Part shown: in pieces, positions 1-23,638 of the stretch | Layout of the letters: the number at the start of each line of letters is the position of its first letter | Position numbering within the stretch: position 1 is the first letter of the stretch | Assembly (NCBI GenBank): GCA_022759365.1 | Contig: JAEMPJ010000007.1 | Coordinates: forward strand, 9,372 to 73,371 | DNA length: 64,000 nt | DNA from: Thermogladius sp. | GTDB lineage: Archaea > Thermoproteota > Thermoprotei_A > Sulfolobales > Desulfurococcaceae | Reading direction: 5' to 3' | Notes under the pieces: generated by a model | Databases searched by the model: none | Seen by the model: the letters and a program-made list of their open reading frames with translations, nothing else | What the model was told of the DNA's origin: nothing | Made by a program: the position numbers and the translations under genes

Positions 1-129
1 ATGTAACCAGGCGAAACCTTGTTACATCAGCTAGGCCTTGTCGAATGCAAAACCACCCTTATTCTAAGCCTGTGGCCTTCATATAGTGATTTTAATTAGA
101 TTGATTCAGTATTATTAAGCTTTAACAGT

Positions 130-711
130 TCAGGGCTCGAGATATATAATCATGTAACCCTTCTTACTGATTTTCTCAACCCTCCCATAGACTTTACTTG
201 CCTTCTCTAAGATGCTCTCCCCACCCCTCGCCAAGACGAATTGTGCCCACCCGCCGGGTTCAAGGTAGTTGATTGCGTTCAACACTATTTTCTCCACAAC
301 GCTCATTCCAGCTGAGAGAGGTGGGTTAGAGTATATCGCGTTGAACCTTAAGCCCTTAAACGGGGTGTAGGAGTCCCCCTCTACTACTGTGACTCTATCT
401 TCAACTCTATTCAACCTGGCATTCATTTTCGCTACTTTCACTGCGAGAGGGTTGATATCAACCATGAACACCCTAATGTTCGGTGAAACCTTGGCTACGG
501 ATATACCTATAACCCCGTAACCGCACCCGACGTCTAGGACGTTGCCCCGTGGTGGTATTTTCAAGTACTCCAGGAGTAGGCGTGTCCCTTCATCCACCTT
601 GCTTCCCGAGAACAAGCTGGTGTAGGATACGAATTGGAGGGTTACCCCTCTGTAGACAAACGGGATTAACACTTTTTCCCCTAAACTCCCCTTCCTGAAA
701 TAATGGGTCAA
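130..711 (-). CDS. Class I SAM-dependent methyltransferase, RsmC/RlmG-like small-domain MTase
   Basis: SAM motif I VLDVGCGYGVIGI, motif IV YSNPPL, and upstream FSGSKVDEGTRLLLE typical of the MTS family. Its start overlaps the cbf5 stop by 4 nt. Confidence 0.7.
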   Translation of the reverse strand: MTHYFRKGSLGEKVLIPFVYRGVTLQFVSYTSLFSGSKVDEGTRLLLEYLKIPPRGNVLDVGCGYGVIGISVAKVSPNIRVFMVDINPLAVKVAKMNARLNRVEDRVTVVEGDSYTPFKGLRFNAIYSNPPLSAGMSVVEKIVLNAINYLEPGGWAQFVLARGGESILEKASKVYGRVEKISKKGYMIIYLEP

Positions 712-1781
712 GTCCCTGAAACCTGCCTCCTCCAGGCTTGTGGATACACTCCTGTCGGCATATACACCCTCTTAACTTTGACGACAACGCCCCTGCTCAT
801 ATTCTTGATCTCCCCCGAGTCGTACTGTGAGACCCCTAGGGCGACTAGTTCGCCTTTTAAAGTGAGCAGAGCCACGGTCGAACCCTTTCTAACATCGCTG
901 GTCAACCTGGCAACACCAGGGGCAGCTAGGTTGGCGCCGTGGGCTACCGCGTCTACAGCTGTGTCCAAGATCATAATCTTGGGCATGTGGACAATCGATA
1001 CTTCAACGGGCTGTACAACCCTCCTCAGCAGTCTCTCGTCCCCGCTCTCCCTCCACAAGGTGACCGCCTCCATCACCTCCTGCATCGTGAACAATGTTTC
1101 ATCCTCTTTGAAAGGCCCCGTCCTAGTCCTCCTCAACTCCCTCATGTGGGCTCCAACACCCAGGAGCAAGCCCATGTCGTGGGCTAGTTTCCTCATGTAA
1201 GTCCCTGGGTCTGATGTAACCCTTAACAAAGCAAACCTTCCAGTGTATTCGAGGAGCTCTATTTCATAGATCCTCCTCTTCCTCAAAGTCCTCTTCACGC
1301 TCGACCTGAGGGGCGGCCTCTGGTAGATCTCCCCTCTAAAATACTCTACAACCCTCCTCAGCTTATCCTCCTCGACTTTATCGTGTAATTGGACAACCAT
1401 CACGTATTCTTTAACCGTGTGTACTACATTGCCTATAACCTTAGTAGCGTTCTCCAACCCTACAGGCAGGACACCTGTAACCTTGGGGTATCCCCGCCCT
1501 CTTCACGAGGGCTCTAGGGTACCCCCGTGCCCAGCCTTGCTGACCCCTAGTAATCTCTTAACCCACGCGACGACCTCATGGCTCGTTGGCCCAGGCGGCT
1601 TATCTAGATTTATCACCCCGTTCACTATGTGCTCTTGAATAGGCCTCTCGTAGGGTAGCTTACCGTAATCAGGGGATGTATCTGCTTCTCTAACCGTGAT
1701 CCACTCGTTTTTATACCCGGCTCTCACCGTGATATGGTCTATGAAGGCCAGGGCTTTCTCGACTATACCCATCCACCGCAC
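708..1781 (-). CDS. cbf5: H/ACA RNP pseudouridine synthase Cbf5 (TruB family), encoded as two exons (1781..1513 and 1488..708) separated by a 24-nt intron
   Basis: ORF 1503..1781 ends GHGGTLEPS*. ORF 708..1457 continues upstream in-frame as PKVTGVLPVGLENATKVIGN. Removing 1489..1512 restores the universal TruB motif GHGGTLDPKVTG including the catalytic Asp. A PUA-like C-terminus is present. The spliced product is about 349 aa. Confidence 0.85.
1489..1512 (-). other. Putative endonuclease-spliced pre-mRNA intron in cbf5 (boundary ambiguous by 1 nt)
   Basis: The minus-strand insert GCCCUCGUGAAGAGGGCGGGGAUA contains an in-frame UGA and a 6-bp hairpin GCCCUC/GAGGGC. It splits the GA|C Asp codon, and excision keeps the reading frame. 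Confidence 0.7.
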
Positions 1782-1955
1782 CCTAGTCTTATGTTATAGA
1801 AGGGCGTATTTAATCATGCTATAACGCATCTCCCGTCTCTTTGGCCCTTGGGCATCTACACGGGCTCAACTGGTTTTAGGATCCCATATAATTCTAAGTT
1901 GTGTGAGTATCCCAAAATTTCTTCTTGTTTTCTACCATGATTTTCAAAAAGCTAC

Positions 1956-2252
1956 TCAGATAGCTTTCGGGGAGATTTTAATTTTTTCTCTCATGAAGTC
2001 CGTTAGACCGCTCTCCCCAATCGCTTTGAGCACTTCCTCGTCGCTCGCACCTCTAGAAATCGCCACTTTCTTATCAAGAGGCTCGATGTGCTTGATGTTG
2101 ACCCTCCTCCTTTTCACGCCCGTTAGACTCTTCGGCCCTGTTATCAAGACGAATGTGTCATCAATTATGTCCACAATCACGCATTTCCTGCCTGCTTCTC
2201 TACCGGTTAGTTTGACGCATATCCTACCTATTTCAATAGCAGGCATAATCAA
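1956..2252 (-). CDS. rpl14e: 50S ribosomal protein L14e
   Basis: [24 protein letters not shown] is a KOW-like L14e signature. Position between cmk and cbf5 matches other crenarchaea. Confidence 0.85.
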
Positions 2253-2257
2253 CCCCC

Positions 2258-2818
2258 TTAATGAATAGCAGTTTTTCGTGTTTTTAAAAACTTGTCTATA
2301 CTCGACTTTATGATCGCGAATGTTTCGTCTACTGTCAGAGTTGAAGTGTCTACTATGAGGTTGAATATGGATAAATCCGTTGGATCTATCCCGTAGTATT
2401 CAATAAACCTCTTTCTCTGGACGGTTTCACGTATAATTGTCTCGCGGAGCGCCTGATTAAAAGGCTTGCCGTCTCTCGCGGCTATTCTCTGGACGCGGAT
2501 GTTCAGGGGGGCCGTTATGTATATTTTGAAATCGACTATATCGCTTGCAATCCACGCGGTTAAATGCCCGTCTAAGACGATGTTGTCCTCTAACGCGAGT
2601 TGGAATGTCCTCCGGTCGATCTCTAAGTCTATGCTGGGGTCTCTAGCCGCTATTAGCGATAGCTCCTCGATGGTGAGACCCCTCGACCTAGCTATCTCCC
2701 TGAAAATACTTCCAGCAGAGTAGTAGACTAGAGAATACGCGTCCGCTATTCTTCTAGCCTGAGTCGTCTTACCGCTACCAGGAGGCCCGCTTACAGCTAT
2801 CCGAACCAAAACCGGCAC
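2258..2818 (-). CDS. cmk: Archaeal-type cytidylate kinase
   Basis: P-loop [10 protein letters not shown], length 186 aa, in the conserved L34e-cmk-L14e context. Confidence 0.8.
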
Positions 2819-2839
2819 CGCTCTGAGGGGGTTTGGAGG

Positions 2840-3112
2840 TTAGGCGGCAGCCCTAGCAGACTGCCTCAGCAGTCTCGCAAGGCATCTCGGGCAGATCACG
2901 CCGCCGTAAATCCTCTCAGGCCTCTTCTCCGTCTTAGCCAGCTTCCTCAACTGGCTAGGCCTCAGCCTTGGAACGCCGTTCAAAGGCCTCCCGCAGATTG
3001 CGCAGTGTGCGACCGAAGGCTTCCTCTTCTCATAGTGTATCTTCAGCTCACCGCCAGGCGTCCTAACAACAACCCTCCTTAGACTCCTAGACCTGTACAT
3101 TGGCCTAGGCAT
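2840..3112 (-). CDS. rpl34e: 50S ribosomal protein L34e
   Basis: N-terminus [21 protein letters not shown] and zinc-ribbon-like CAICGRPL...CPRC. Confidence 0.9.
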
Positions 3113-3177
3113 CCTTGTAACCCTCGCGGTTCCTATCGTGTAATCCTGAAAATCGGCTTGGAGCTTTATAAATCCTA

Positions 3178-4614
3178 CTACTCGCCAATAAGCTTCTTCA
3201 GCAATGGGTATGCCTCGAGAGCCCTCTCGTAGGCTATCAGCATGTAGTACTGTTGGACGATACCTATTGCCAGGAGTAGGCCCATCCCACCGCCGTATAC
3301 GCCGAGAACATCCGAGAGCGCAGCTAGGACACCGACTATCAGGCTTGAGAGAATTGTAAGCGGTGTAATGTATTTCTCGAGCATTTTCTCAAGTATCTTC
3401 GGGTTCCTCCTCATCCCGGGCACCTCCATCCCGCTGTCGACTAATTGCTGTGCTTGAGCTGAAGCGTTTAAACCCGATACTTCAACCCACATGTAGCCGA
3501 ACACTATTGAGAGCGATACCAGCACAACAATGTAGACAACAGTCTTGACGGGGTCAGCGTACGCGCTGTAAACCCCTAGCGGGGAGTTCAAGTAGTAGGC
3601 CAAGCCGCCAACCAGGTTCCCGTTCTGATCGTAGGTGGCCAGTGCATTAACCAGCCACTGAGGTATTACTCCACCGCCGTAGGTTCTAAACAGCGAGGCG
3701 AAAACGAGTATGTCTGCGTAGAGTATTCCGACGAAGAGGACTGGGATGTTCGACACATAGAGGAATTGGAGGGGTATCCTAGTCTTGATGGATTGAAGCC
3801 TAGGCGTGGTGATCGGTATGTTTACTTTTATGTTACTCAAGTAGATTAACAGGATTGAGACGACTATTGTAGCTATTAACCCGACGAGATCCCTGCCTCC
3901 TGGTCTCACCATCACGCTGGATATACTGCCGCCGCTCGACAAAACTTGGATCAAGTAGGGTATTAGACCAATGGCTGCGCCGTTTATTACGACAGGGCTG
4001 AACGTGTTCCAGAATATTATGGTCGCCACGCCTGCTAGTATGAACAGGCTTACACCAGATCCGATCCCCCAGCCCTTCTGTATCATCTCGTCGAGGAGTA
4101 TAGCTACGTAGGCGCCAGCGAAGATCTCCAGGCCGACAACAAGCCTCGCAACCCAGGAGGCTGAGCATGATGTAAACGGGTTCGACCCGGTGACAGGCCA
4201 GTACCTGCAGGAGAGGACATACATGGCTGCCTCGAAGACAGCTAGTATTACAGCGAGGGTTTTCTGCGCTGAAGTAAACTTCTTCCTGTCTTCGGGGTTC
4301 GTCAAGTCTAGATCTATGAGTTTAGCGCCAACAAGGATCTGCATTATCAAGCCCGCTGTAACAATAGGCCCGATACCGAGCTCCATTAAAGTACCTCTAT
4401 TAGAGGCGAATATTACCTGGATTAGCAGTATCTGCTGCTGCGGCTGGATCGGGATACCGTATAGGGGCGTGTTCGCCATGATCAAATACGCGATTAAAGC
4501 CATCGCGGTCCAAAACAACCTCTCGTAGAGTGATGGTTTCCTCTCCGGCTTCTTGGCTGTAGGCATGTAATCGGCGATCCTGGCCATCACATCTAGAGTA
4601 CCCATTACCAACAC
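3178..4614 (-). CDS. secY: Preprotein translocase subunit SecY
   Basis: 478-aa polytopic membrane protein downstream of L15, with SecY-like segments ([23 protein letters not shown]). Confidence 0.95.
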
Positions 4615-11073: not shown

Positions 11074-11407
11074 CCTTCTTGACTACGCCTAAAACAACAA
11101 ATGAAACACTCTTAGCCAAAGGCCTTGTCTCACCTATAACGACCACATCCCCTTCTTTCACCTTAATGCACGGCGGGAGATGAGCGTGAATATGTTTATG
11201 CCTCCTCTCATACCTCTTGTACTTGGGGTCGTAGTACAAGTAGTCGTGCCTGACGACAACCGTCCTCTGCATTTTAGCGCTTTTAACCACACCTGTTAGA
11301 ATAGCGCCTCTCACCTTCACGTGCCCGTGCCAAGGGCACTTAGGATCGTTACATGTCTCGCTAGGCGGCTCCACACCCTTAATGCCGATGTTACGCGCCA
11401 CACTCAT
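11066..11407 (-). CDS. rps17: 30S ribosomal protein uS17
   Basis: [16 protein letters not shown] and [18 protein letters not shown] signatures. Confidence 0.9.
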
Positions 11408-11739
11408 TTAAACCACCTCTTAGCTCTCTTAAGCCTTTCAGCTGGTCTACCTAAGATTAAATCCCCCTTTATAACCACTACTTCCCCGTTAGGGAGCTTG
11501 AATTCAAATACTCCATTGGGCTTTAAAACCCTAATTCTTCTACCCGAGCTAGTCTCGAGGAGGAGGGTTTTCAAAGTCTCATCAACAACTACACCCTCTA
11601 ATCCATTGAGTTTTTCATCCGTGTACGATAAAACACGTATTCTTAAGCCTATCAACTCGTGGTAGAGAATATTCTTACTGCTTAGCTTCAACTCCTGCAC
11701 TACCTTCACTTGCCTCTTCCCCGGCAACCTCCTCGGCAA
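11404..11739 (-). CDS. rnp1: RNase P protein component 1 (Rpp29/Pop4)
   Basis: HELIGLRIRVL...GLEGVVVDETLKTLLLE...GDLILGRPAERLK Sm-like barrel pattern. Conserved archaeal position between L29 and S17. Confidence 0.8.
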   Translation of the reverse strand: MPRRLPGKRQVKVVQELKLSSKNILYHELIGLRIRVLSYTDEKLNGLEGVVVDETLKTLLLETSSGRRIRVLKPNGVFEFKLPNGEVVVIKGDLILGRPAERLKRAKRWFK

Positions 11740-13104: not shown

Positions 13105-13542
13105 CTACGTCTTCAAAGCGACGAACATACTGCTCCTCGTAGCCTTTAGGCCAGGCTCGCCGTGGACGACCTTCTTGGTTGTAGGGCTGAACTCGCCGAG
13201 GTAATGCCCAATCATCTCGGGTGTTATCTTAACAGGCTGAAACTCCTTACCGTTGTATACAGCTATAGTTAGACCGACCATCTCTGGCAGAACGATCATA
13301 TCCCTGACATGGGTCTTGATAACGGCTTTCTTAGCCAGCTCAGGCTTCTGCCTTATCTTCCTTATCTTCGCGAGCAACCTTATCTGGGCTTTAGTGAAGC
13401 CTCTCTTCAAGCTCCTCCTAGCCCTAGCAGGTAGCAACTCGATGAGTTCATCCATTGGCATTGAGAGTAGCTCCTCTAAGCTCTTACCTCTATACCTAAA
13501 CTTCTTCCACTCGGGCGGCATATCTCTTAAATCCACTGCCAC
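13105..13542 (-). CDS. rps19: 30S ribosomal protein uS19
   Basis: [34 protein letters not shown] signature. Confidence 0.92.
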
Positions 13543-13583
13543 TGGGATACACCTGTAAGCACTCGATCCAGATATGCCTGTGT

Positions 13584-15410
13584 CTAGATTTTAATGTTTA
13601 ACCTCTTTTTAAGTAAAATGGGTAGTTTGCTGGGATTTTTAACGATTATCGTCTCGCACCCCACATCCCTTAATCTCCTTAAAACCTCATTATCGTGTCG
13701 CGGCGGCGTTACCACGATGACTCTCACACCCCTCTCGATTAGCTCTGAAACCTCAACCCATGGCTCAGTATCTCTCACCGTCTGCTTGAGATCCGAGACT
13801 ATGAGGACAACCCTGCTCGTCGGCTTGGCCTTGACTGCCCTGATCGCCTGGCTTATATTGGTGTAGCCCCTGAACTTCTGGGTGTAGAGTTTCTCGAGGA
13901 ATTTGTAGACTAGGGGCCTAGTCTTCCTCGCCGGGGGTTTAACGACCTCGACTTTATCCCAGAACAGTAGTATTCTATCCACTACCTCTATTAAGCTGGC
14001 TAGTGCTATGAGGGTCCATATACTATACCTGAGCATGCTACCGCTGACATCTATAAGGACTGTCACACTCCTCTTTCTAAGTACATCCTTGAATGAAAGC
14101 CTGTAGTTGAACCTGGAGTAATTGAACACTGTCGCCCTCACATCTACTCTACCTCTACTAGACCTCACTCTCCCCCCTACTCGGGAACCTTTTTCAGCAT
14201 TCTCGAATATTCTGCAACCAAGCCTCAACGCCCTCTCTATAACCTCATAGTTAAAGCCCTTCGTGGAAGTGTAGTCAAGGACTCTCATTGAGAGGAGCTC
14301 TATGGCGTCGTCTGGGAACAACTTGGAGACAACGCGCTCAAACCCTCTTTGGTCTTCCCCTAATATGCTCTCTAGAAGCCGCCTCAAGGAGTGATCTAAT
14401 TGAGAGGCATCTACTCTCCCAGCATAGTACAACGCCAGCTGCCTCTCTCCCTGCTCGCCGGATACCAAGTAGTCTACGTAGTGTCTTAACGCTAGCCCCA
14501 GCAACGCCTTACTTCTAGCCGACCCCTCTAGTTTCTCCAAGCTGGTTAAGCCAGCCAGTGTTATAGGGCTGAGCTCGGATAGCCTTCCCCTAAACTTCTC
14601 GACTCTATACAAGCTTGACACAATCTTCCACCTTGTAGGCAGAGGCTCATTCTCCAACTCGCTGAGGTCTAGATGCTGGTAAACCTCCTTGTTTAACCCC
14701 GGCATCCTGGTGGAAAGATCCTTGTCCAGTCTCCTAGCCGAGAGCAGTGTTTCGAGCCGGAGCCCCCCTCTTAAGGCTCTCTCAGACCACTCCTCCATAA
14801 TCCTCTTGTCAACACTCTTATTATAGCCCGCGAACCTCCTAGTCAACTCCGCTAGCAACAAGTCATCCACGTGTTTCAGGAACTCGTTTGTCAACACGCT
14901 AGGCCAATACTTGCTGGGAACCTCACCCAGGTATTTTATCACATCTTTAACCCCAATGGCTTTAGCCTCCCTGATAACCCTGCCTGAAATATTCTTGTTG
15001 ACACTGAGCCTCCCCGATTTGTCCCTGTAGAGTACTCTATGAGACCTAAGCCAAATGTAGCTCAATACTTCCTCGGCGCTTCCATCCCTTATTACATCCT
15101 CTACACGCAGGCCCCTGCGTTTTGCAGTGAGGATTCGTAGAAGCCCGTCTTTACTGGGCTGGAAAGACCACTCTCTAATGTCGGCTTCACCGGGTTTCTT
15201 AACGTAAGAGTTGTAAAGCTCCTCGACAACCTCCCTCTTTAGGTTATCGGATTCGTAGGGCAGGAGCTCCAACGTTAGCCTAAGCAGAGTCAAGTCTAAT
15301 AACTGGCTTGTGGGAAGCCGCTTGCCATCTCTAACTCTCCGGTAGACCTCCTCAACAACAGCTTCAACCAGGTCTTCAACGCTATCTCTCACGTGCTGGT
15401 AGGAGCTCAT
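13584..15410 (-). CDS. Large protein with a C-terminal von Willebrand factor A (VWA/MIDAS) domain; the N-terminal ~430 aa are uncharacterised and helical
   Basis: MIDAS motif VLIDVSGSM followed by ...GYTNISQAI...VVLIVSDL, giving a DxSxS...T...D arrangement. Its start overlaps the upstream AAA+ gene. Confidence 0.65.
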
Positions 15411-16320
15411 TGATCAAATCCTCGTCTTCAGGATTCTTCAATAAGACCACTCTACCTGCTTCAACAAGCTCTTCTCTACCAGCTTTCTCCAGCCCCCTGA
15501 TCTCGGCTAGTAGAGATGTCAACGTCATCCACATAACGCTGTCCGATATACCAGGCTTGTATACAGCCTTCTGCCTCAACGTTCTAACAATAGACAGTGC
15601 CTCCTCAACCAGCTTGGGGTCAAGCCTCTTAGCTAGGTCTCCTAGCCTAAGCTTGATGATCTCGAGCTCTTCTTCAAGCGACGGGTACTTGAACTCTATT
15701 CTGACGACCCGTCTAAGGAACGCGTCGCTGAGCTCGCCTTGGCCAATGTCGTAGGGGTTGCTGGTTAATATGATCTGGAACCCCTCGTCTTTCTGATAAT
15801 AGACTTTCTTCAACTCGGGTATTATGATCCTCCTCTTGTCTATTATGTCGAGGAGCATGTTCTGGAACTCCTCGCTACTCCTTCTTATATCGTCTATTAA
15901 TACGCCAGCGCCTAGTATCATGGCCGCTAGAAGCGGCCTTGGTATAAAGCTCTCCTCGTTAAACCCCTTGCTTACAGCCATAGCTGGGTGGAAGTCCCCT
16001 ATAACCCGGTACTCATCGTAGTTTTCACTACATGGAAGCACGAAAGCAGACTTCCCGCTCCATAAGCTGAGTATAGCCTCACCTATCTCGGTCTTACCTG
16101 TACCAGGAGGCCCCTCGAAGAGGACAGGCCTGTTGTTCAGGAAAGCCGCCACCGTGAGATACACGACATGGGGTTTGACAACTAGCTTGAAGTAGTCCCT
16201 CAAATACTTCAGCATCTCAGGCGGGCTTCTCACAACTGGATATCGGCGAATCGTCTGGAGGTATATCTCCTGTACTTTACTCACGATTAAGTCAACGTTG
16301 CCGCTGCTACTCGAAGCCAT
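15382..16320 (-). CDS. MoxR-like / AAA_5-like AAA+ ATPase
   Basis: Walker A FEGPPGTGKTE, Walker B GVLIDDIRR, sensor-1 ILTSNP, and Arg region DAFLRRV. Single AAA+ module of 312 aa. Confidence 0.7.
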   Translation of the reverse strand: MASSSSGNVDLIVSKVQEIYLQTIRRYPVVRSPPEMLKYLRDYFKLVVKPHVVYLTVAAFLNNRPVLFEGPPGTGKTEIGEAILSLWSGKSAFVLPCSENYDEYRVIGDFHPAMAVSKGFNEESFIPRPLLAAMILGAGVLIDDIRRSSEEFQNMLLDIIDKRRIIIPELKKVYYQKDEGFQIILTSNPYDIGQGELSDAFLRRVVRIEFKYPSLEEELEIIKLRLGDLAKRLDPKLVEEALSIVRTLRQKAVYKPGISDSVMWMTLTSLLAEIRGLEKAGREELVEAGRVVLLKNPEDEDLINELLPARER

Positions 16321-16382
16321 CCCGACCAGAACCTAGGGGAGGTTGGGTAGTGCTATCTAGAAATTAGGTTTCGGTGAAAAGG

Positions 16383-18199: not shown

Positions 18200-19390
18200 C
18201 TAAGCACCCTGCTTGCTCTCAAGGCTTAGATAAGTTATCTGCGGGGGTGTTAAGGGCAACCAGCCCAACGGTGGTCTAACGGGGTGTCTTAGCATGAGAA
18301 CTCTCTTCACAGGCCCTATCACGCTCCCCTTGATCAAGAGGTAGGGGCCGTATATCAAACCGTAGTGGAGGAAGCCTCCCTCGGGGACGACTTCAAGGCC
18401 GTTCATCCCTATCTTCAGGATCCTCTTATTCAGCTCAGTCCTCCTGTGGAAGCCTGTCTGACCTGCCTGAGGCGGCTCGCTCATAGTGCCGAAGCCAGGG
18501 CTCCTCGCGCCGATCTTTCTACTACCCTTCCTGTGCTTATGCCACCTCGGAAGCTCTTTTACTCCAAACCTCTTTATAACGCCCTGGAAGCCCTTCCCCT
18601 TTGTTACACCTATAACGTCGACCAACTGTCCCTCTAGGAATACATCTGATACAGTTACGAAGCCTCCTGTAACCTTCTCTGCGTATGAAGTTAGCTCATC
18701 TATTTTACCTCCCCCAACCCTGATCTCGAATATCTCGGGCTTCTTCTTGCCGATCCCCGAGAATATAGGCAACGTTGATACAATTAAGCTTACTGCTTTG
18801 ATCTCCCCTGACAAAACCTGTTTAACCCTGTTTTCGAAGTCCGTCTCAATAAACTTGAACCCGTACTCGCCTCCGGGGTCAGGTTTCACGAGACCGTGGT
18901 TAACCTTCCTTAACCCCGCGAGGTACTTCCTGACGATTTCCTTGGCGGAGTATTGCTTGAAGAACGGGCTGTCCTTGTAAAACTTCTCGAATACCTCGAT
19001 AACCGCGTTTACAGGGCTTCTCCAAGCCTCCCCCTGGGTCTTCAAGGCACCTCCTTCAGCAACGTAGGTTCTCAAGCCTAACACTACGATAGGCGGGGCG
19101 TCCAGTATCGTGAGCGGCGTGAAAACGGGTTTACCGGTTAGAGGGGTGCGGGGCCTGTCCTCGACTACAAGGGCGTGGGACATCCCAGCCTTGTATACTG
19201 GGAAGCCTAGCAACATGGGTCTCCTAGCGATATTGAGCTTCTCGACTTCACTACCATACCTTTCCGCAAGTACCTCAATCCACGTCTTCGCAGGCCACGT
19301 CCTCACGCGTACGGTTAACTCGCTAGCCCTCTTCCTCGGCCTGACACCCAGGCTACCGTGTCTCGGCGCTTCTAGTTTTCTATGACCCAT
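18200..19390 (-). CDS. rpl3: 50S ribosomal protein uL3
   Basis: [16 protein letters not shown]-terminus and [17 protein letters not shown] motif. Confidence 0.95.
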
Positions 19391-19467: not shown

Positions 19468-20307
19468 TCATTCGGCTGGTCGAAGCCCAGCCCAGGTCTT
19501 CCTCAAGATGTTTATGATGCCTAGCGTTATAACAAGGGCCTCCTCGCTCCGTACAGTCACCACCCTCTGTCCAGGTATCGTATTCCACACGTCTTCAACA
19601 TACATCCTCAAGTTGAAGCCCTCGGCTACAGCCATCTCGAATAACCCGTGGCTAGGAGACCCGAAGAGCACGAGCATCGTCTTATTGAGCCTCCTGGCAT
19701 ACTCGTGGATAGGGGGTACCCTACCCCTCCTGTCTGTTGCCAGGATGAGGCTTCTACCCGCGTATTCATCGACGACTTCTCTCAGAGACTTTTTAAACTC
19801 TAGCTCGGGGCCTGTGTAGAGCCCTCCCTCGGTTACTTCAACCACCCTCCTGTCTACATCGACCACTCTAACCTGTTTGATACCTTCTTTACACTCGCCT
19901 TTAACAAAATACTCCTCCCCTACACCGATGTCTGCGAGGCAGCCCTCCCGCGTTTTCTTCACGTGGGCGAGCCTCACCTGCCCCTTATACGGTTTCCTGG
20001 AGACGTGGAATGCCTCTAGCCTGAGAGGCGGGAGCAGGCCTACACCCCTCAGATCCCTGTCTATGGGTATGAGCTTCTTCCTCAAGTAGGGGGGTGTCCT
20101 GTAGTAATTCCAAACCTTCTCTAAGAAAACCGCGGATTCTTCATGGGATCTCTCGCTTGTAGAAAAATCTTTGTAGAACACAATTTTCCCTACCCCGAAT
20201 ATAGAGGAGTATCTTAGGATCTGGTATGCTTTCATGAGCCTCGGCAGGCCAGGGGGTTCAGCAAGTAAAACGCTTGTTGGTAGAGCAACGTAAATCTCAT
20301 CGCTCAA
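19468..20307 (-). CDS. Putative SPOUT-class RNA methyltransferase (DUF171/COG2106-like), TTG start
   Basis: N-terminus IYVALPTSVLLAEPPGL...ILRYSSIFGVGKIVFY and C-terminal VLFGSPSHGL resemble the family usually found upstream of archaeal rpl3. Confidence 0.55.
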   Translation of the reverse strand: MSDEIYVALPTSVLLAEPPGLPRLMKAYQILRYSSIFGVGKIVFYKDFSTSERSHEESAVFLEKVWNYYRTPPYLRKKLIPIDRDLRGVGLLPPLRLEAFHVSRKPYKGQVRLAHVKKTREGCLADIGVGEEYFVKGECKEGIKQVRVVDVDRRVVEVTEGGLYTGPELEFKKSLREVVDEYAGRSLILATDRRGRVPPIHEYARRLNKTMLVLFGSPSHGLFEMAVAEGFNLRMYVEDVWNTIPGQRVVTVRSEEALVITLGIINILRKTWAGLRPAE

Positions 20308-20503: not shown

Positions 20504-22141
20504 TCAGGATGCTCGCCGTTCATCACTGTCTGCATGTATAGGGCTTCTAACCTTAAATACAACCGGGTGCGGGTCTAGGGCGTTAAGGAAGAATGCTTCC
20601 CCAACACCGAGCCTGCTGAGCTTACCAGCTAGATCCTCGGCTTCCAGGCCCAGCATCCCAGCCGCGTCCCGCGCGTACTTCTCGTTGGGGGAGCCGAATA
20701 TAATCACTAGGTGAGCGTTCTCGACCACCTCCCTGGGGAGGTCGCTCGGGTTCTGAGTGGAGAGAACCATGCCCACCCTCCTACTCCTACCCTCCTTGAA
20801 GAGCTCCGCTACCAGCCTAGATCTCGATATCCTCCAAGCCTCGTCCACGACGATAAGCCGTATGTCGCTGGTACCCCTCTGGAAAAAGGTCTTCCGAGCC
20901 AGGTATAGTAGTATTAGCCCGTAGGCTGTCTGATAGGCGTACCCGTAGTTGCCCAAGTTGGCTAACACGTTGTCACTCATAATCAATTCAGCTAGATCCT
21001 TATGTCTAGAATCCCTTCCCAGGAACTCAAGTATCGGTAGAATGTCTGCTCTTACATGGCTGATGACGTCGCCAGCGGTGATCGTAGAGTAAACGTATTC
21101 AACCGACTCCATCAAAATCTCTCTCGGCACCTGGAGAGACGAAGACAGGAGGTCTGCTAGAAGGCCTTTGGCCTCAATGCTGGAATCAAACAGCCCTCTG
21201 ACCGATAACGGGTATTCCCTGGGCTCTATTATCCTCGCGATACCTTTCTCCATGTAGGCGGCTAGATCACCCTTGAAGTCCACAGCAAGGAATAAGCCGG
21301 CTCCAACTGAGAAAAAGCCCTCGAGCAACCTAGCGAGGAGAGTTGTCTTACCCCTCCCCGTGGGACCTATCACAATCATGTGTTTTAGAAGCATGTCTAC
21401 GGGTACCACTACAGGGGTACCGTCCTCCGCTTCAACACCAAGCAGTATAGCGTCCTCGTAGTCGGCGCGCGGCTTCTTAACCGCTGGGGCGGGTAGAACC
21501 GGTGCCACAGCGTTTACCGGCCCTATGAAGCTCTTGACGTCTAAATCGTTGGATAGCCCGAGCTCGTAGGCCAGGATCCTCCCGAGCTCTCTTCCAGCCT
21601 CCCTAATCTTCAACCCGAGAGTAGACCTGAAAACGTTGGAGATTATTGATGAGTGGTATGAGAGTATCTGCTTAGCCTCCTCAGTCGTGTTCGCTTCAAC
21701 CCTGATCTTAACGATAAACGATAGCCTCAGCAACGGCTTGCCTTCTACAATCATTTTATAGAGCTCGCTGAGATTGCTCAGCCTGGCTTCCAACCTCGTC
21801 TTCAAGAAGGGTTCGCTTGCTAGCTCCATGGAGGCCTTGATATTGGCCATCTCATTTTCAAGTTTTCTAAGAAAAGACGTTAAGTCGAGTTTAAACTTAA
21901 TTATCTTAACCTCGCTACCGTGCGGGAGTTTATCGATGACCGAGGCTAGTCTTTCAACGTTATCATACAGTTTCACAGGGCTTAAACTCCTAACATCGAG
22001 ATCCATCTCCTCCCCGATCAAGTAGCGTATACCCGTAACCTTGCCTCGGTTAATATAGAATAAGTCCGGCGGCTCTACTCTAACCTCACCCGCCTGCGAG
22101 ACCCTCGCCAATAAGGCTTTAATATCCCTCAATCTTACCAT
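20504..22141 (-). CDS. VirB4/HerA-superfamily ATPase, CedB-like
   Basis: Walker A VIGPTGRGKTTLL, Walker B IRLIVVDEAWR, and AVDFKGDL after the P-loop. It is last in an operon with three membrane proteins. Confidence 0.65.
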   Translation of the reverse strand: MVRLRDIKALLARVSQAGEVRVEPPDLFYINRGKVTGIRYLIGEEMDLDVRSLSPVKLYDNVERLASVIDKLPHGSEVKIIKFKLDLTSFLRKLENEMANIKASMELASEPFLKTRLEARLSNLSELYKMIVEGKPLLRLSFIVKIRVEANTTEEAKQILSYHSSIISNVFRSTLGLKIREAGRELGRILAYELGLSNDLDVKSFIGPVNAVAPVLPAPAVKKPRADYEDAILLGVEAEDGTPVVVPVDMLLKHMIVIGPTGRGKTTLLARLLEGFFSVGAGLFLAVDFKGDLAAYMEKGIARIIEPREYPLSVRGLFDSSIEAKGLLADLLSSSLQVPREILMESVEYVYSTITAGDVISHVRADILPILEFLGRDSRHKDLAELIMSDNVLANLGNYGYAYQTAYGLILLYLARKTFFQRGTSDIRLIVVDEAWRISRSRLVAELFKEGRSRRVGMVLSTQNPSDLPREVVENAHLVIIFGSPNEKYARDAAGMLGLEAEDLAGKLSRLGVGEAFFLNALDPHPVVFKVRSPIHADSDERRAS

Positions 22142-22247
22142 GAAGGAACACCAACAGGAGGGTGAGTGTTAGGCCTGTTGCGAGTAGGATGAGGCCTGTA
22201 GAACCGTGCTCCTCGATGAATGAGAGCACGGACATTATTAAAGTCAT
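22119..22247 (-). CDS. Candidate 42-aa single-TM protein (MTLIMSVLSFIEEHGSTGLILLATGLTLTLLLVFLHGKIEGY), absent from the ORF track
   Basis: Manual translation of the gap between the polytopic membrane gene and the ATPase. Purine-rich GGAGATTGGAGAAGG lies upstream. The ORF overlaps the ATPase start by 23 nt. Confidence 0.35.
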   Translation of the reverse strand: MTLIMSVLSFIEEHGSTGLILLATGLTLTLLLVFLHGKIEGY

Positions 22248-22273
22248 GCATACTATCGCCTTCTCCAATCTCC

Positions 22274-23638
22274 TCATGGGCCGAACACCATGACTCTTGA
22301 AATCCTCGCTTCGACACCACCCAGTAGCTTGGCTAGCCCCAGCGTCGCTGAAACTAATATTAGAATGTACACTACCGGGAGCACGAGGAGCCTGAAAAAC
22401 GTCAGGGAGACCAGGCTAACCGCAAGAGGCATAACCGATCCTTTTTCAACAGTGGTCTCGAGGTATGAGACCTCGCTTACATCCGGCTTAGATATGTTGA
22501 GCTCTCCGACTTGGACAGTCAGGGTGTGCACGCCGGGGCTTAAATCCGCTGTAAAAGCCTTGTAGTCCACGCCAAACCACTCGAAGGAAGTCTCGTATCC
22601 TCCACTTCCACCACCGTCCACTGATATTACTAGGCTACTCCCCTCCTCGTAGACAACGTATACTTTAGTGTTGTATAAGACGTCGAACACGACTGTGAGC
22701 GTTCCATTAACTCTGCTAATGTTCTCGACAATGGCTTCATCAGTATTGTAGTATATGAAGTGGTTTACATTAATGGAGATTACGTTGGGAACCCTGTACG
22801 TCAGGTTGAGCGGTTTCGAGCCCTGGGTTATATTAGCTTCAACAGTGTACTTCGAGCCGGGCAGTAGGAAGTCCAACACCTGGGGGCCAACAGGGATCCA
22901 TTTATCTATAGAGGTGGCGTTCACAACCCCGTTTGAATCACTCAGATACGTGTACAGCAGGTTGCCTTCCAGGTCGGTGGAGTTTAAAACGAAGTAGGCC
23001 ACGGGGTTGCCCACTAGGTCGACTAGGCTTATGAGCGCTGGCTCCCCCTGGATGAGCTGTTGATCGGGCGGGGTCACCGTCGAGAACAAGGATATGAAGG
23101 AGGGCAGGAAGGGGGCCCCGATGGTGAAGACTATTGGCAACGCGATCAACACAGCGCCGGCCGGCCTCGTCAGCCTGAAGGGTACTGAGTAGAGGAGTAG
23201 GCCGACCGCGATCAGGGTCTTCGCCGTCGCGTATATGACGCTGACCGCTAGGTAGAACACCGTGACCGTCACGAGCACGTCTATGAGCAGGCTCACTAGA
23301 GGCGAGATCAAACCTGACGCGAGGAATCCAAGCCCGATCTTATTGTAGATAAAGCCTATGGTCTTCAAGACCAGGAAAAGCGTTGTCAGGGCTGCTGCCT
23401 CAGCGATATACCATGCGTTGAAAGCATCCCAGTTGGATCCCAGCAATGAGCTGAAGTAGGAGATACTGTACACTAAACCCTTGTAGCTGAACACTAGGAA
23501 AGCCGAGAAAACGCCGTCCACCATGAGCCTCGAGCCAAGCTTCTTGATAGACACCAGGGGTATGGGTAGACCCCTTAAAGCGGCGCCTAGGACGTAGGTT
23601 AGTATAGACAAATAGTAGGCCAGGTAGAGGATGTCCAT
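22274..23638 (-). CDS. Polytopic membrane protein, CedA/VirB6-like, with a large predicted extracellular domain and a C-terminal TM anchor
   Basis: About 6-7 N-terminal TM helices. A ~230-aa beta-rich segment follows, with at least 7 N-x-S/T sequons (NST, NAT, NIT, NLT, NIS, NGT, NIS). Terminal hydrophobic helices are present. The N-terminus repeats the LRGLPIP..IKK.G....DGV motif of the upstream small protein. Confidence 0.55.
   Translation of the reverse strand: MDILYLAYYLSILTYVLGAALRGLPIPLVSIKKLGSRLMVDGVFSAFLVFSYKGLVYSISYFSSLLGSNWDAFNAWYIAEAAALTTLFLVLKTIGFIYNKIGLGFLASGLISPLVSLLIDVLVTVTVFYLAVSVIYATAKTLIAVGLLLYSVPFRLTRPAGAVLIALPIVFTIGAPFLPSFISLFSTVTPPDQQLIQGEPALISLVDLVGNPVAYFVLNSTDLEGNLLYTYLSDSNGVVNATSIDKWIPVGPQVLDFLLPGSKYTVEANITQGSKPLNLTYRVPNVISINVNHFIYYNTDEAIVENISRVNGTLTVVFDVLYNTKVYVVYEEGSSLVISVDGGGSGGYETSFEWFGVDYKAFTADLSPGVHTLTVQVGELNISKPDVSEVSYLETTVEKGSVMPLAVSLVSLTFFRLLVLPVVYILILVSATLGLAKLLGGVEARISRVMVFGP

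Follow-up and report, generated by a model that had tools for sequence, protein, structure and literature searches.

A stretch of 64,000 nucleotides (nt) from Thermogladius sp. (assembly GCA_022759365.1, contig JAEMPJ010000007.1, positions 9,372 to 73,371; this whole stretch is hereafter called the window) contains a ribosomal protein supercluster in which two additional genes, encoding a MoxR-class AAA+ ATPase and a protein with a C-terminal von Willebrand factor A (VWA) domain, lie between the genes for ribosomal proteins L2 and S19. On the minus strand, the list of open reading frames (ORFs) gives the order L3-L4-L23-L2, AAA_5 ATPase, VWA_CoxE protein, S19-L22-S3, L29, Rpp29, S17, L14 and onwards. 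The ATPase gene (15382..16320, minus strand) encodes an acidic protein of 312 amino acids (aa) of the AAA_5 type (Pfam AAA_5, 1.4e-20), with 54-96% identity across the 80 loci described below. The second gene (13584..15410, minus strand) encodes a basic protein of 608 aa with an isoelectric point (pI) of 9.8, which was recognized by Pfam VWA_CoxE and an AlphaFold2 (AF2) model as a VWA protein with a metal ion-dependent adhesion site (MIDAS) and is referred to here as the adaptor. Database entries label the two proteins simply as "MoxR family ATPase" and "VWA domain-containing protein".

According to the ORF coordinates, the stop region of the ATPase gene and the start of the VWA gene overlap by 29 nt (15382..15410, minus strand), which suggests translational coupling of the two genes. 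The pair is flanked upstream by L2 (16383..17099, minus strand; Pfam Ribosomal_L2_C, 4.3e-44) and downstream by S19 (13105..13542, minus strand; Pfam Ribosomal_S19, 9.4e-35), followed by L22 (also confirmed by Pfam) and S3; L3 lies at 18200-19390 (minus strand) in the ORF list. A preliminary description of this DNA had reported two co-oriented genes between L2 and S19, and its coordinates, protein lengths and motifs (GPPGTGKT, LIDDIRR and DVSGSM) were all verified, as were the gaps of 62 nt (16321-16382) and 41 nt (13543-13583) and the 29-nt overlap when compared with the ORF list. The GC content of the pair (0.48-0.50) does not differ from that of the neighbouring genes.

Conserved association of the gene pair with S19

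By scanning one genome per species with the ATPase alignment, we obtained 93 relatives and 80 loci, which span Desulfurococcaceae, Pyrodictiaceae, Acidilobaceae and Fervidicoccaceae and whose flanking genes were annotated by tblastn. This survey covers ATPase-bearing genomes only. Proteins of Thermogladius calderae show 83% identity to the ATPase and 54% to the adaptor, and a metagenome-assembled genome (MAG) of Thermogladius encodes proteins that are 96% and 90% identical to the window pair, respectively. The arrangement L2, ATPase, VWA gene, S19 is also present in T. calderae, Thermogladius sp. 4427co, Staphylothermus marinus and Desulfurococcus mucosus, and strains with complete genomes in all three genera carry the pair. 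Because the same insertion recurs in Thermogladius, Staphylothermus and Desulfurococcus and across the 80 loci, the arrangement is not due to chance.

The VWA gene is found directly 3' of the ATPase gene in each of the 79 loci that are readable for both, with junctions ranging from a 95-nt overlap to an 11-nt gap. Among the 69 loci with enough downstream sequence to be informative, the pair lies beside S19 in 62: S19-L22-S3 follows immediately on the same strand in 46 of them, a same-strand S19 is located within 4 kb in 2 further loci, and a convergent S19 (or S19-L2) occurs within approximately 2 kb in 14, mostly from Pyrodictiaceae, after local rearrangement. A same-strand L2 upstream of the pair was observed in Desulfurococcaceae and Fervidicoccaceae, and S19 still lies 3' of the pair in about 22 loci that lack an upstream L2. 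Since the link to L2 is variable while S19 persists, the conserved unit is ATPase-VWA-S19-L22-S3. A location of the orthologs away from ribosomal genes, which the preliminary description had named as speaking against its proposal of a ribosomal role, was thus not what the relatives display, and the position next to S19 in 62/69 loci makes the idea of a link to the ribosome stronger than it could be from the window alone. In one 72-kb MAG contig (CAZCAU010000002.1), the pair and its flanks are present twice in inverted orientation (L084, 11861-24799; L085, 47074-60012 reversed) with identical match statistics, which reflects either an inverted duplication or an assembly artefact.

The spacers around the pair were inspected by eye and by alignment. 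In the window, the 62-nt spacer between L2 and the ATPase gene (16321..16382, minus strand) has a run of four to five T residues right after the L2 stop codon and a conserved AGGT approximately 12 nt before the ATG. The 41-nt spacer between the VWA gene and S19 (13543..13583, minus strand) is without a T run and has a Shine-Dalgarno-like AGGTG (13550-13554), separated by 7 nt from the GTG start codon of S19. An A/T-rich 18-nt motif at the 3' end of the VWA gene (13587..13604, minus strand), AGGTTAAACATTAAAATC, is conserved as DNA, with TAAA and TTAAAA blocks that do not vary among Thermogladius, Staphylothermus and Desulfurococcus (the window and loci L003, L004 and L006-L008). This motif falls within the last codons of the gene (encoding …LNIKI and the stop), some 45-60 nt upstream of the S19 start, and may represent a TATA-like internal archaeal promoter for S19 inside the coding sequence.

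In relatives, the spacer between L2 and the ATPase gene ranges from 56 to 1600 nt (56-65 nt in Thermogladius and 100-1600 nt in other Desulfurococcaceae) and contains, depending on the lineage, a gene for a Cren7-like Zn-ribbon protein, a divergent ORF of 116-143 aa, an ORF of 81-84 aa, or TnpB. No additional conserved partner was found in this spacer, and none of the spacer ORFs has a significant match in the window. Several Desulfurococcaceae (L022, L025, L026, L028, L032 and L043) have the gene for the Zn-ribbon protein (46 aa; Pfam match to the Cren7 family, 2.9e-14) in this interval, in the same orientation as its neighbours, and the divergent ORF was detected at L003, L013, L015, L060, L025, L026 and L028. 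The protein of 81-84 aa (MVKAYR[IV]FYT...VDYINV-like), which has neither a Pfam match nor a homologue in the window, recurs ahead of the pair in Fervidicoccaceae and in one MAG of the Acidilobaceae (L071:5634-5888, L083:5659-5904 and L076:1864-2112). In a Desulfurococcus MAG, a 405-aa ORF (L019:4423-5640, minus strand) resembling, by sequence inspection, a transposase of the TnpB/OrfB type (IS200/IS605) separates L2 from the ATPase gene, which must therefore have its own promoter there. Co-transcription of the pair with ribosomal proteins, as proposed in the preliminary description, is thus plausible with L2 in Thermogladius, judging from the short spacers, and is not general, because elsewhere the spacer is long and either has TnpB inserted or is occupied by a Cren7-like gene or a divergent ORF.

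Anatomy and affinities of the ATPase and the adaptor

The profile hidden Markov model check that had been recommended for the two proteins gave matches above the Pfam cut-offs for both. For the ATPase, AAA_5 scores 74.1 bits (cut-off 22), and AAA_3, which represents MoxR proper, scores 22.4 bits, under its cut-off of 27. The Walker A motif GPPGTGKT (residues 70-77; 16090..16113, minus strand) is invariant in the ATPase alignment, together with hhhhD(E/D), TSNP (containing the sensor-1 Asn) and FLRR (the Arg finger region). At Walker B, comparison of orthologues revealed an acidic pair of Asp-Asp (D143-D144; 15889..15894, minus strand) instead of the usual Asp-Glu; DE is present in 72/79 orthologues and DD in 7/79 (the window and six others), which belong to three separate groups. 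The protein also has a conserved N-terminal extension of about 55 aa, and the median pI of the family is 5.8. Weak Pfam matches to DUF5682 were observed in the lid region of the ATPase (residues 242-296, E 0.0097) and in four adaptors (best E 6.7e-4).

MoxR proteins have been divided into the Snider-Houry subfamilies MRP, APE0892, RavA, CGN, APE2220, PA2707 and YehL (PMC3893208). To judge from its scores, the ATPase comes closest to proteins of the CGN type. Its best NCBIfam matches are "MadB family AAA-type ATPase" (84.5 bits) and GvpN (50.4 bits), and membership in either family was rejected because these scores are far under the respective cut-offs of 475 and 266.8 bits. When the ATPase was searched against PDB sequences, midasin ranked first (110 bits), followed among single-module proteins by NorQ (38 bits) and CbbQ (33 bits). 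However, the midasin score is the sum over six AAA modules, each of which contributes at most 25-30 bits, no higher than the 38 bits of NorQ, and special kinship with midasin was therefore rejected.

The VWA_CoxE match of the adaptor (54.6 bits, cut-off 26.4) covers residues 414-571, and 49 of 50 family members match this family as well. An AF2 model built on an alignment of 81 sequences reached a predicted local distance difference test score (pLDDT) of 88.5 and a predicted template modelling score (pTM) of 0.73, and an earlier model based on 5 sequences (pLDDT 60) was discarded. In this model, residues 1-70 form three long helices and residues 87-137 (15000..15152, minus strand) a winged-helix-like module, in which helices are followed by a beta hairpin; its alignment consensus is AYxxLRxxGxIxRxxxGxxV and the segment has a pI of 10.4. 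A profile search of PDB sequences yielded no significant sequence match of this module to a named winged helix-turn-helix family. Residues 150-405 (14196..14963, minus strand) are predicted to form a fast-evolving helical-repeat region, for which weak matches to designed helical-repeat/Armadillo proteins, FliG and MgtE_N were found. The alignments further reveal a very basic linker (residues 406-448; 14067..14195, minus strand; pI 11.7) with a conserved GRxDxRxTxxNxxR, lying partly inside the Pfam VWA_CoxE match.

The remaining part, residues 449-603 (13602..14066, minus strand), shows the alternating strands and helices of a VWA fold in the AF2 model. Its MIDAS residues, D454, S456 and S458 of the DxSxS motif (14037-14051, minus strand) together with T517 and D540, are invariant in the 81 adaptor sequences. 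In Foldseek searches this domain matches many VWA domains at a root-mean-square deviation (rmsd) of about 4 Å; matches confined to the VWA part include the NorD VWA domain (9qhe_G, the best), TFIIH p44/p34, BatB and the MIDAS domain of MDN1 (8ql1_G, E 7e-4). All 50 members examined are basic (pI 9.5-10.4), a charge that is consistent with binding of nucleic acids. HMMER, PDB profile and Pfam searches detected no sequence relatives of the N-terminal region outside the family. The preliminary description had found no recognisable motif in this region, a point to be refined in view of the winged-helix-like module and helical repeats in the model.

The most similar known systems are the NorQ-NorD and CbbQ-CbbO pairs, in which a small, single-module AAA_5 ATPase is likewise encoded beside a partner of 600-750 aa that has a variable N-terminal region and a C-terminal VWA domain with an intact MIDAS; NorQ and CbbQ are also the best single-domain PDB sequence matches of the ATPase (33-38 bits). 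In contrast to these systems, the window pair has ribosomal neighbours and no nor, cbb or cox client genes nearby, and the N-terminal region of its adaptor is uniformly basic and made up of the winged-helix-like module and helical repeats. Given that the VWA domain is of the CoxE type and that NorQ, CbbQ and GvpN are the characterised proteins most similar to the ATPase, it may be asked whether the pair is a housekeeping maturase with a non-ribosomal target, acting, as NorQD, CbbQO and CoxDE do, in metal-cofactor insertion or in the activation of an abundant enzyme or membrane complex. The genes for NorQD, CbbQO and CoxDE sit beside those of their clients, whereas none of the 80 loci has a candidate client gene co-localised with the pair, and we regard such a maturase as possible and rather doubtful.

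Midasin (Rea1 or Mdn1) resembles the pair in combining AAA modules of the MoxR clade with a MIDAS/VWA domain, and it acts on pre-60S particles. It differs in being a single polypeptide of roughly 4,700-4,900 aa (PDB entries listed) with six AAA modules, as opposed to one module and a separate adaptor of 608 aa. The preliminary description took the relation to midasin as a pointer to a ribosomal role; this relation turned out to be generic, since single-module NorQ outscores any midasin module. The family was found in a Desulfurococcales-like clade only, not in lineages near eukaryotes, and the pair is thus at most an analogue of midasin and not its ancestor.

A different resemblance concerns Ro60 (Rsr), in which a helical N-terminal region of about 400 aa also precedes a C-terminal VWA domain with MIDAS. 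Among the full-length Foldseek matches of the adaptor in the PDB, Ro60 ranks first (E 5e-6), with entries that include complexes with misfolded pre-5S rRNA, and a TROVE-domain phage protein ranked second in the BFVD fold search (ranks 1 and 3 are unnamed). These similarities, together with the basic charge of the adaptor, would fit a factor for RNA quality control that captures misfolded rRNA or further structured RNAs with its helical region and VWA domain and relies on the AAA+ ring for their release or remodelling, which is a specific version of a ribosome-linked function. However, the full-length alignments have template modelling (TM) scores of only 0.24-0.30 and an rmsd of 15-18 Å, with helical parts that do not appear to superpose, and neither a Pfam match to the TROVE domain in 50 adaptors at E<=1 nor a match to Ro60 in the PDB profile search at E<=10 was obtained. 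As these sequence searches lend no support to homology with Ro60/TROVE, we treat the likeness as an architectural resemblance. A scan of the whole window with Rfam at gathering thresholds detected one tRNA, distant from the pair, and no Y-like or other RNA. Ro60 is not known to work with an AAA+ partner, and Ro systems are not known to include a counterpart of the AAA+ protein that is obligatory here. We consider a Ro60-like factor improbable.

Vertical inheritance of the pair and a sharply bounded adaptor family

The median identity of ATPase orthologs to the window protein is 61%, within the range obtained for the ribosomal proteins L22 (66%), S3 (63%), L4 (61%) and L3 (56%). When 45 loci were compared all against all, pairwise distances averaged 0.357 for the ATPase, as against 0.366 (L22) and 0.380 (S3), and ATPase distances are correlated with those of ribosomal proteins (r=0.86, Mantel p=0.001). 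Thus, ATPase distances track the divergence of ribosomal proteins, implying vertical inheritance. The adaptor diverges much faster than the ATPase (mean distance 0.69). Taken together, the pair is a vertically inherited, strongly constrained housekeeping unit rather than a mobile or conflict module.

This result bears directly on the possibility that a MoxR/VWA conflict (anti-virus) system, or a mobile or viral remnant similar to the p618/ORF892 pair of ATV, had landed in the operon. The MoxR-vWA conflict systems of multicellular bacteria comprise a third conserved component and effector modules and show a patchy, mobile distribution (Kaur et al. 2020, PMC7159879). The ATPase does have weak PADLOC matches (mad8, 3e-4; BrxL, 5e-3), and ORF892 of ATV appeared at rank 9 of the BFVD fold search. 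On the other hand, no effector or third component lies beside the pair, the adaptor has no PADLOC match, and no relatives were detected in 2.9 million viral contigs. Considering also that the ATPase, in contrast to conflict systems, is inherited vertically and evolves as slowly as ribosomal proteins, that its PADLOC matches are not convincing and that base composition is normal, we rejected a defence system or a viral or mobile origin as extremely improbable.

Word-indexed protein searches with the adaptor reached Thermogladius only, and an exhaustive HMMER search was needed to establish the extent of the family. Searching 1.84 billion representative proteins with the adaptor profile identified 114 clusters, nearly all with proteins of 600-715 aa, for which the available names are Desulfurococcaceae, Desulfurococcales and Caldisphaeraceae. 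The adaptor family is therefore small and sharply bounded. One cluster (P0239), a 614-aa family labelled "MoxR-like ATPase / GvpN", has a weak C-terminal match to the VWA profile (E 2.6e-4) and may be a fused, single-chain AAA-VWA relative.

Ribosomal neighbourhood and possible role

Besides the pair, the supercluster contains several other genes that do not encode ribosomal proteins, all on the minus strand. These include a putative SPOUT-type RNA methyltransferase (Methyltrn_RNA_3; 19468-20307), an ORF at the position of the gene for the RNase P subunit Rpp29 (11404-11739; assigned by synteny with L001), a Cbf5/TruB pseudouridine synthase with a PUA domain (708-1457), an MTS-type methyltransferase (130-711), a cytidylate/adenylate kinase (2258-2818) and SecY (3178-4614). 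The majority of these products, namely Rpp29, Cbf5/TruB and the SPOUT and MTS methyltransferases, act on RNA. Just upstream of the ribosomal cluster (20504-22141 and 22119-23638, minus strand), a HerA-like ATPase is encoded beside ORFs of 52 and 454 aa. In Thermogladius relatives, the gene in the place of the 454-aa ORF is listed as CedA1, and the HerA-like ATPase and its neighbours probably represent a Ced DNA-import system; the order HerA, SPOUT methyltransferase, L3 is conserved in Desulfurococcaceae.

The safest reading is that the pair is a machine of the NorQ-NorD/CbbQ-CbbO type; all sequence features required for this model are present. We further propose, with a probability of approximately one half, that it is a dedicated two-component MoxR/VWA machine for the remodelling of proteins or ribonucleoprotein particles (RNPs) with a ribosome-linked role. 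From the genomic context we infer a ribosomal target, which might be a pre-ribosomal particle, rRNA or a ribosomal protein. A client of this kind is favoured because the order-wide link to S19-L22-S3 outlasts that between L2 and S19, because the ATPase diverges at the pace of ribosomal proteins, because the adaptor is basic and contains a winged-helix-like module, and because most other non-ribosomal genes of the supercluster act on RNA.

In NorQD, a MoxR hexamer binds a single VWA partner, in which the VWA domain serves as a plug of the ring, the MIDAS site as the binding site for carboxylates of the client, and the variable N-terminal domain as the source of client specificity (PMC9976466). 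By analogy with NorQD and CbbQO, the acidic AAA_5 ATPase may assemble into a hexameric ring, on which a single basic adaptor would dock through its VWA domain and basic linker. The metal site of the adaptor could then grip a carboxylate on a target selected by the winged-helix and helical-repeat N-terminal region, and the pair might act in the assembly, repair or quality control of ribosomes at very high temperature.

Several observations weigh against a ribosome-linked role. Members of the adaptor family were detected in a single order-level clade of archaea, and a core ribosome factor would be expected more widely. The position in the supercluster alone is no proof, since it is shared by SecY and cytidylate kinase, and synteny may partly reflect the inertia of a very stable operon. 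Seven of the 69 informative loci (about 10%) have no S19 within 2-4 kb of the pair, and in those inspected (L042, L046, L057 and L076) the relocated pair adjoins genes for V-ATPase, ABC-transporter, MFS or IleRS proteins. Codon usage of the pair is not distinctive (81st percentile for the ATPase and 52nd for the adaptor); as the ribosomal genes themselves are little biased, this test is uninformative about expression resembling that of ribosomal proteins. Moreover, characterised MoxR/VWA pairs mostly mature metalloenzymes, not ribosomes. Among the seven loci without a nearby S19, one (L061) has MT3-L3-L4 downstream of the pair. At L042, the gene upstream of the relocated pair (115-3213, plus strand) encodes a catalytic subunit of an A-type ATPase with 1032 aa and an apparent intein-like insertion.

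Part of this evidence would suit the housekeeping maturase considered above, for which a place in the ribosomal cluster would merely offer strong, growth-coupled expression and be hard to break up: SecY and Cmk are unrelated housekeeping genes in the same cluster, and the pair stays intact when relocated away from ribosomal genes. The same account is at odds with the persistence of the S19 link beyond the L2-S19 link and with an adaptor that is uniformly basic and has a winged-helix-like module. As to the remodelling chaperone for ribosomes envisaged in the preliminary description, the S19 link in 62/69 loci lends it weight, although the proposal is still contextual, given that SecY and cytidylate kinase are members of the same cluster.

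In a full-text literature search, neither this pair nor any other MoxR/VWA pair from the ribosomal operon of an archaeon was found to have been described; mention in reviews of the MoxR family, e.g., under APE0892 or APE2220, is possible. The kind of system is already known; the adaptor family, its domain make-up and the conserved position in the ribosomal cluster are new. Even with a non-ribosomal client, the adaptor would be a new and bounded family for the MoxR class, the clients of which are mostly unknown.

The assembly of eukaryotic ribosomes depends on several AAA+ machines, including midasin. For archaea, by contrast, few dedicated ribosome assembly factors are known, and an energy-consuming remodeller is not known to have been established. 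We only tentatively suggest that the pair could be the first AAA+ machine dedicated to the archaeal ribosome, either as a functional analogue of midasin that is split between two polypeptides or as a Ro60-like factor coupled to a motor. If this were true, the MIDAS adaptor of these hyperthermophilic, Desulfurococcales-like archaea would grip a ribosomal protein or a pre-ribosomal RNP, with ATP hydrolysis serving to free assembly intermediates or to salvage misfolded particles. In that case, the combination of MoxR and MIDAS on which eukaryotes rely for the maturation of pre-60S particles would have been invented here independently. The pair is thus a concrete candidate for an archaeal ribosome factor that is testable by both genetic and biochemical means.

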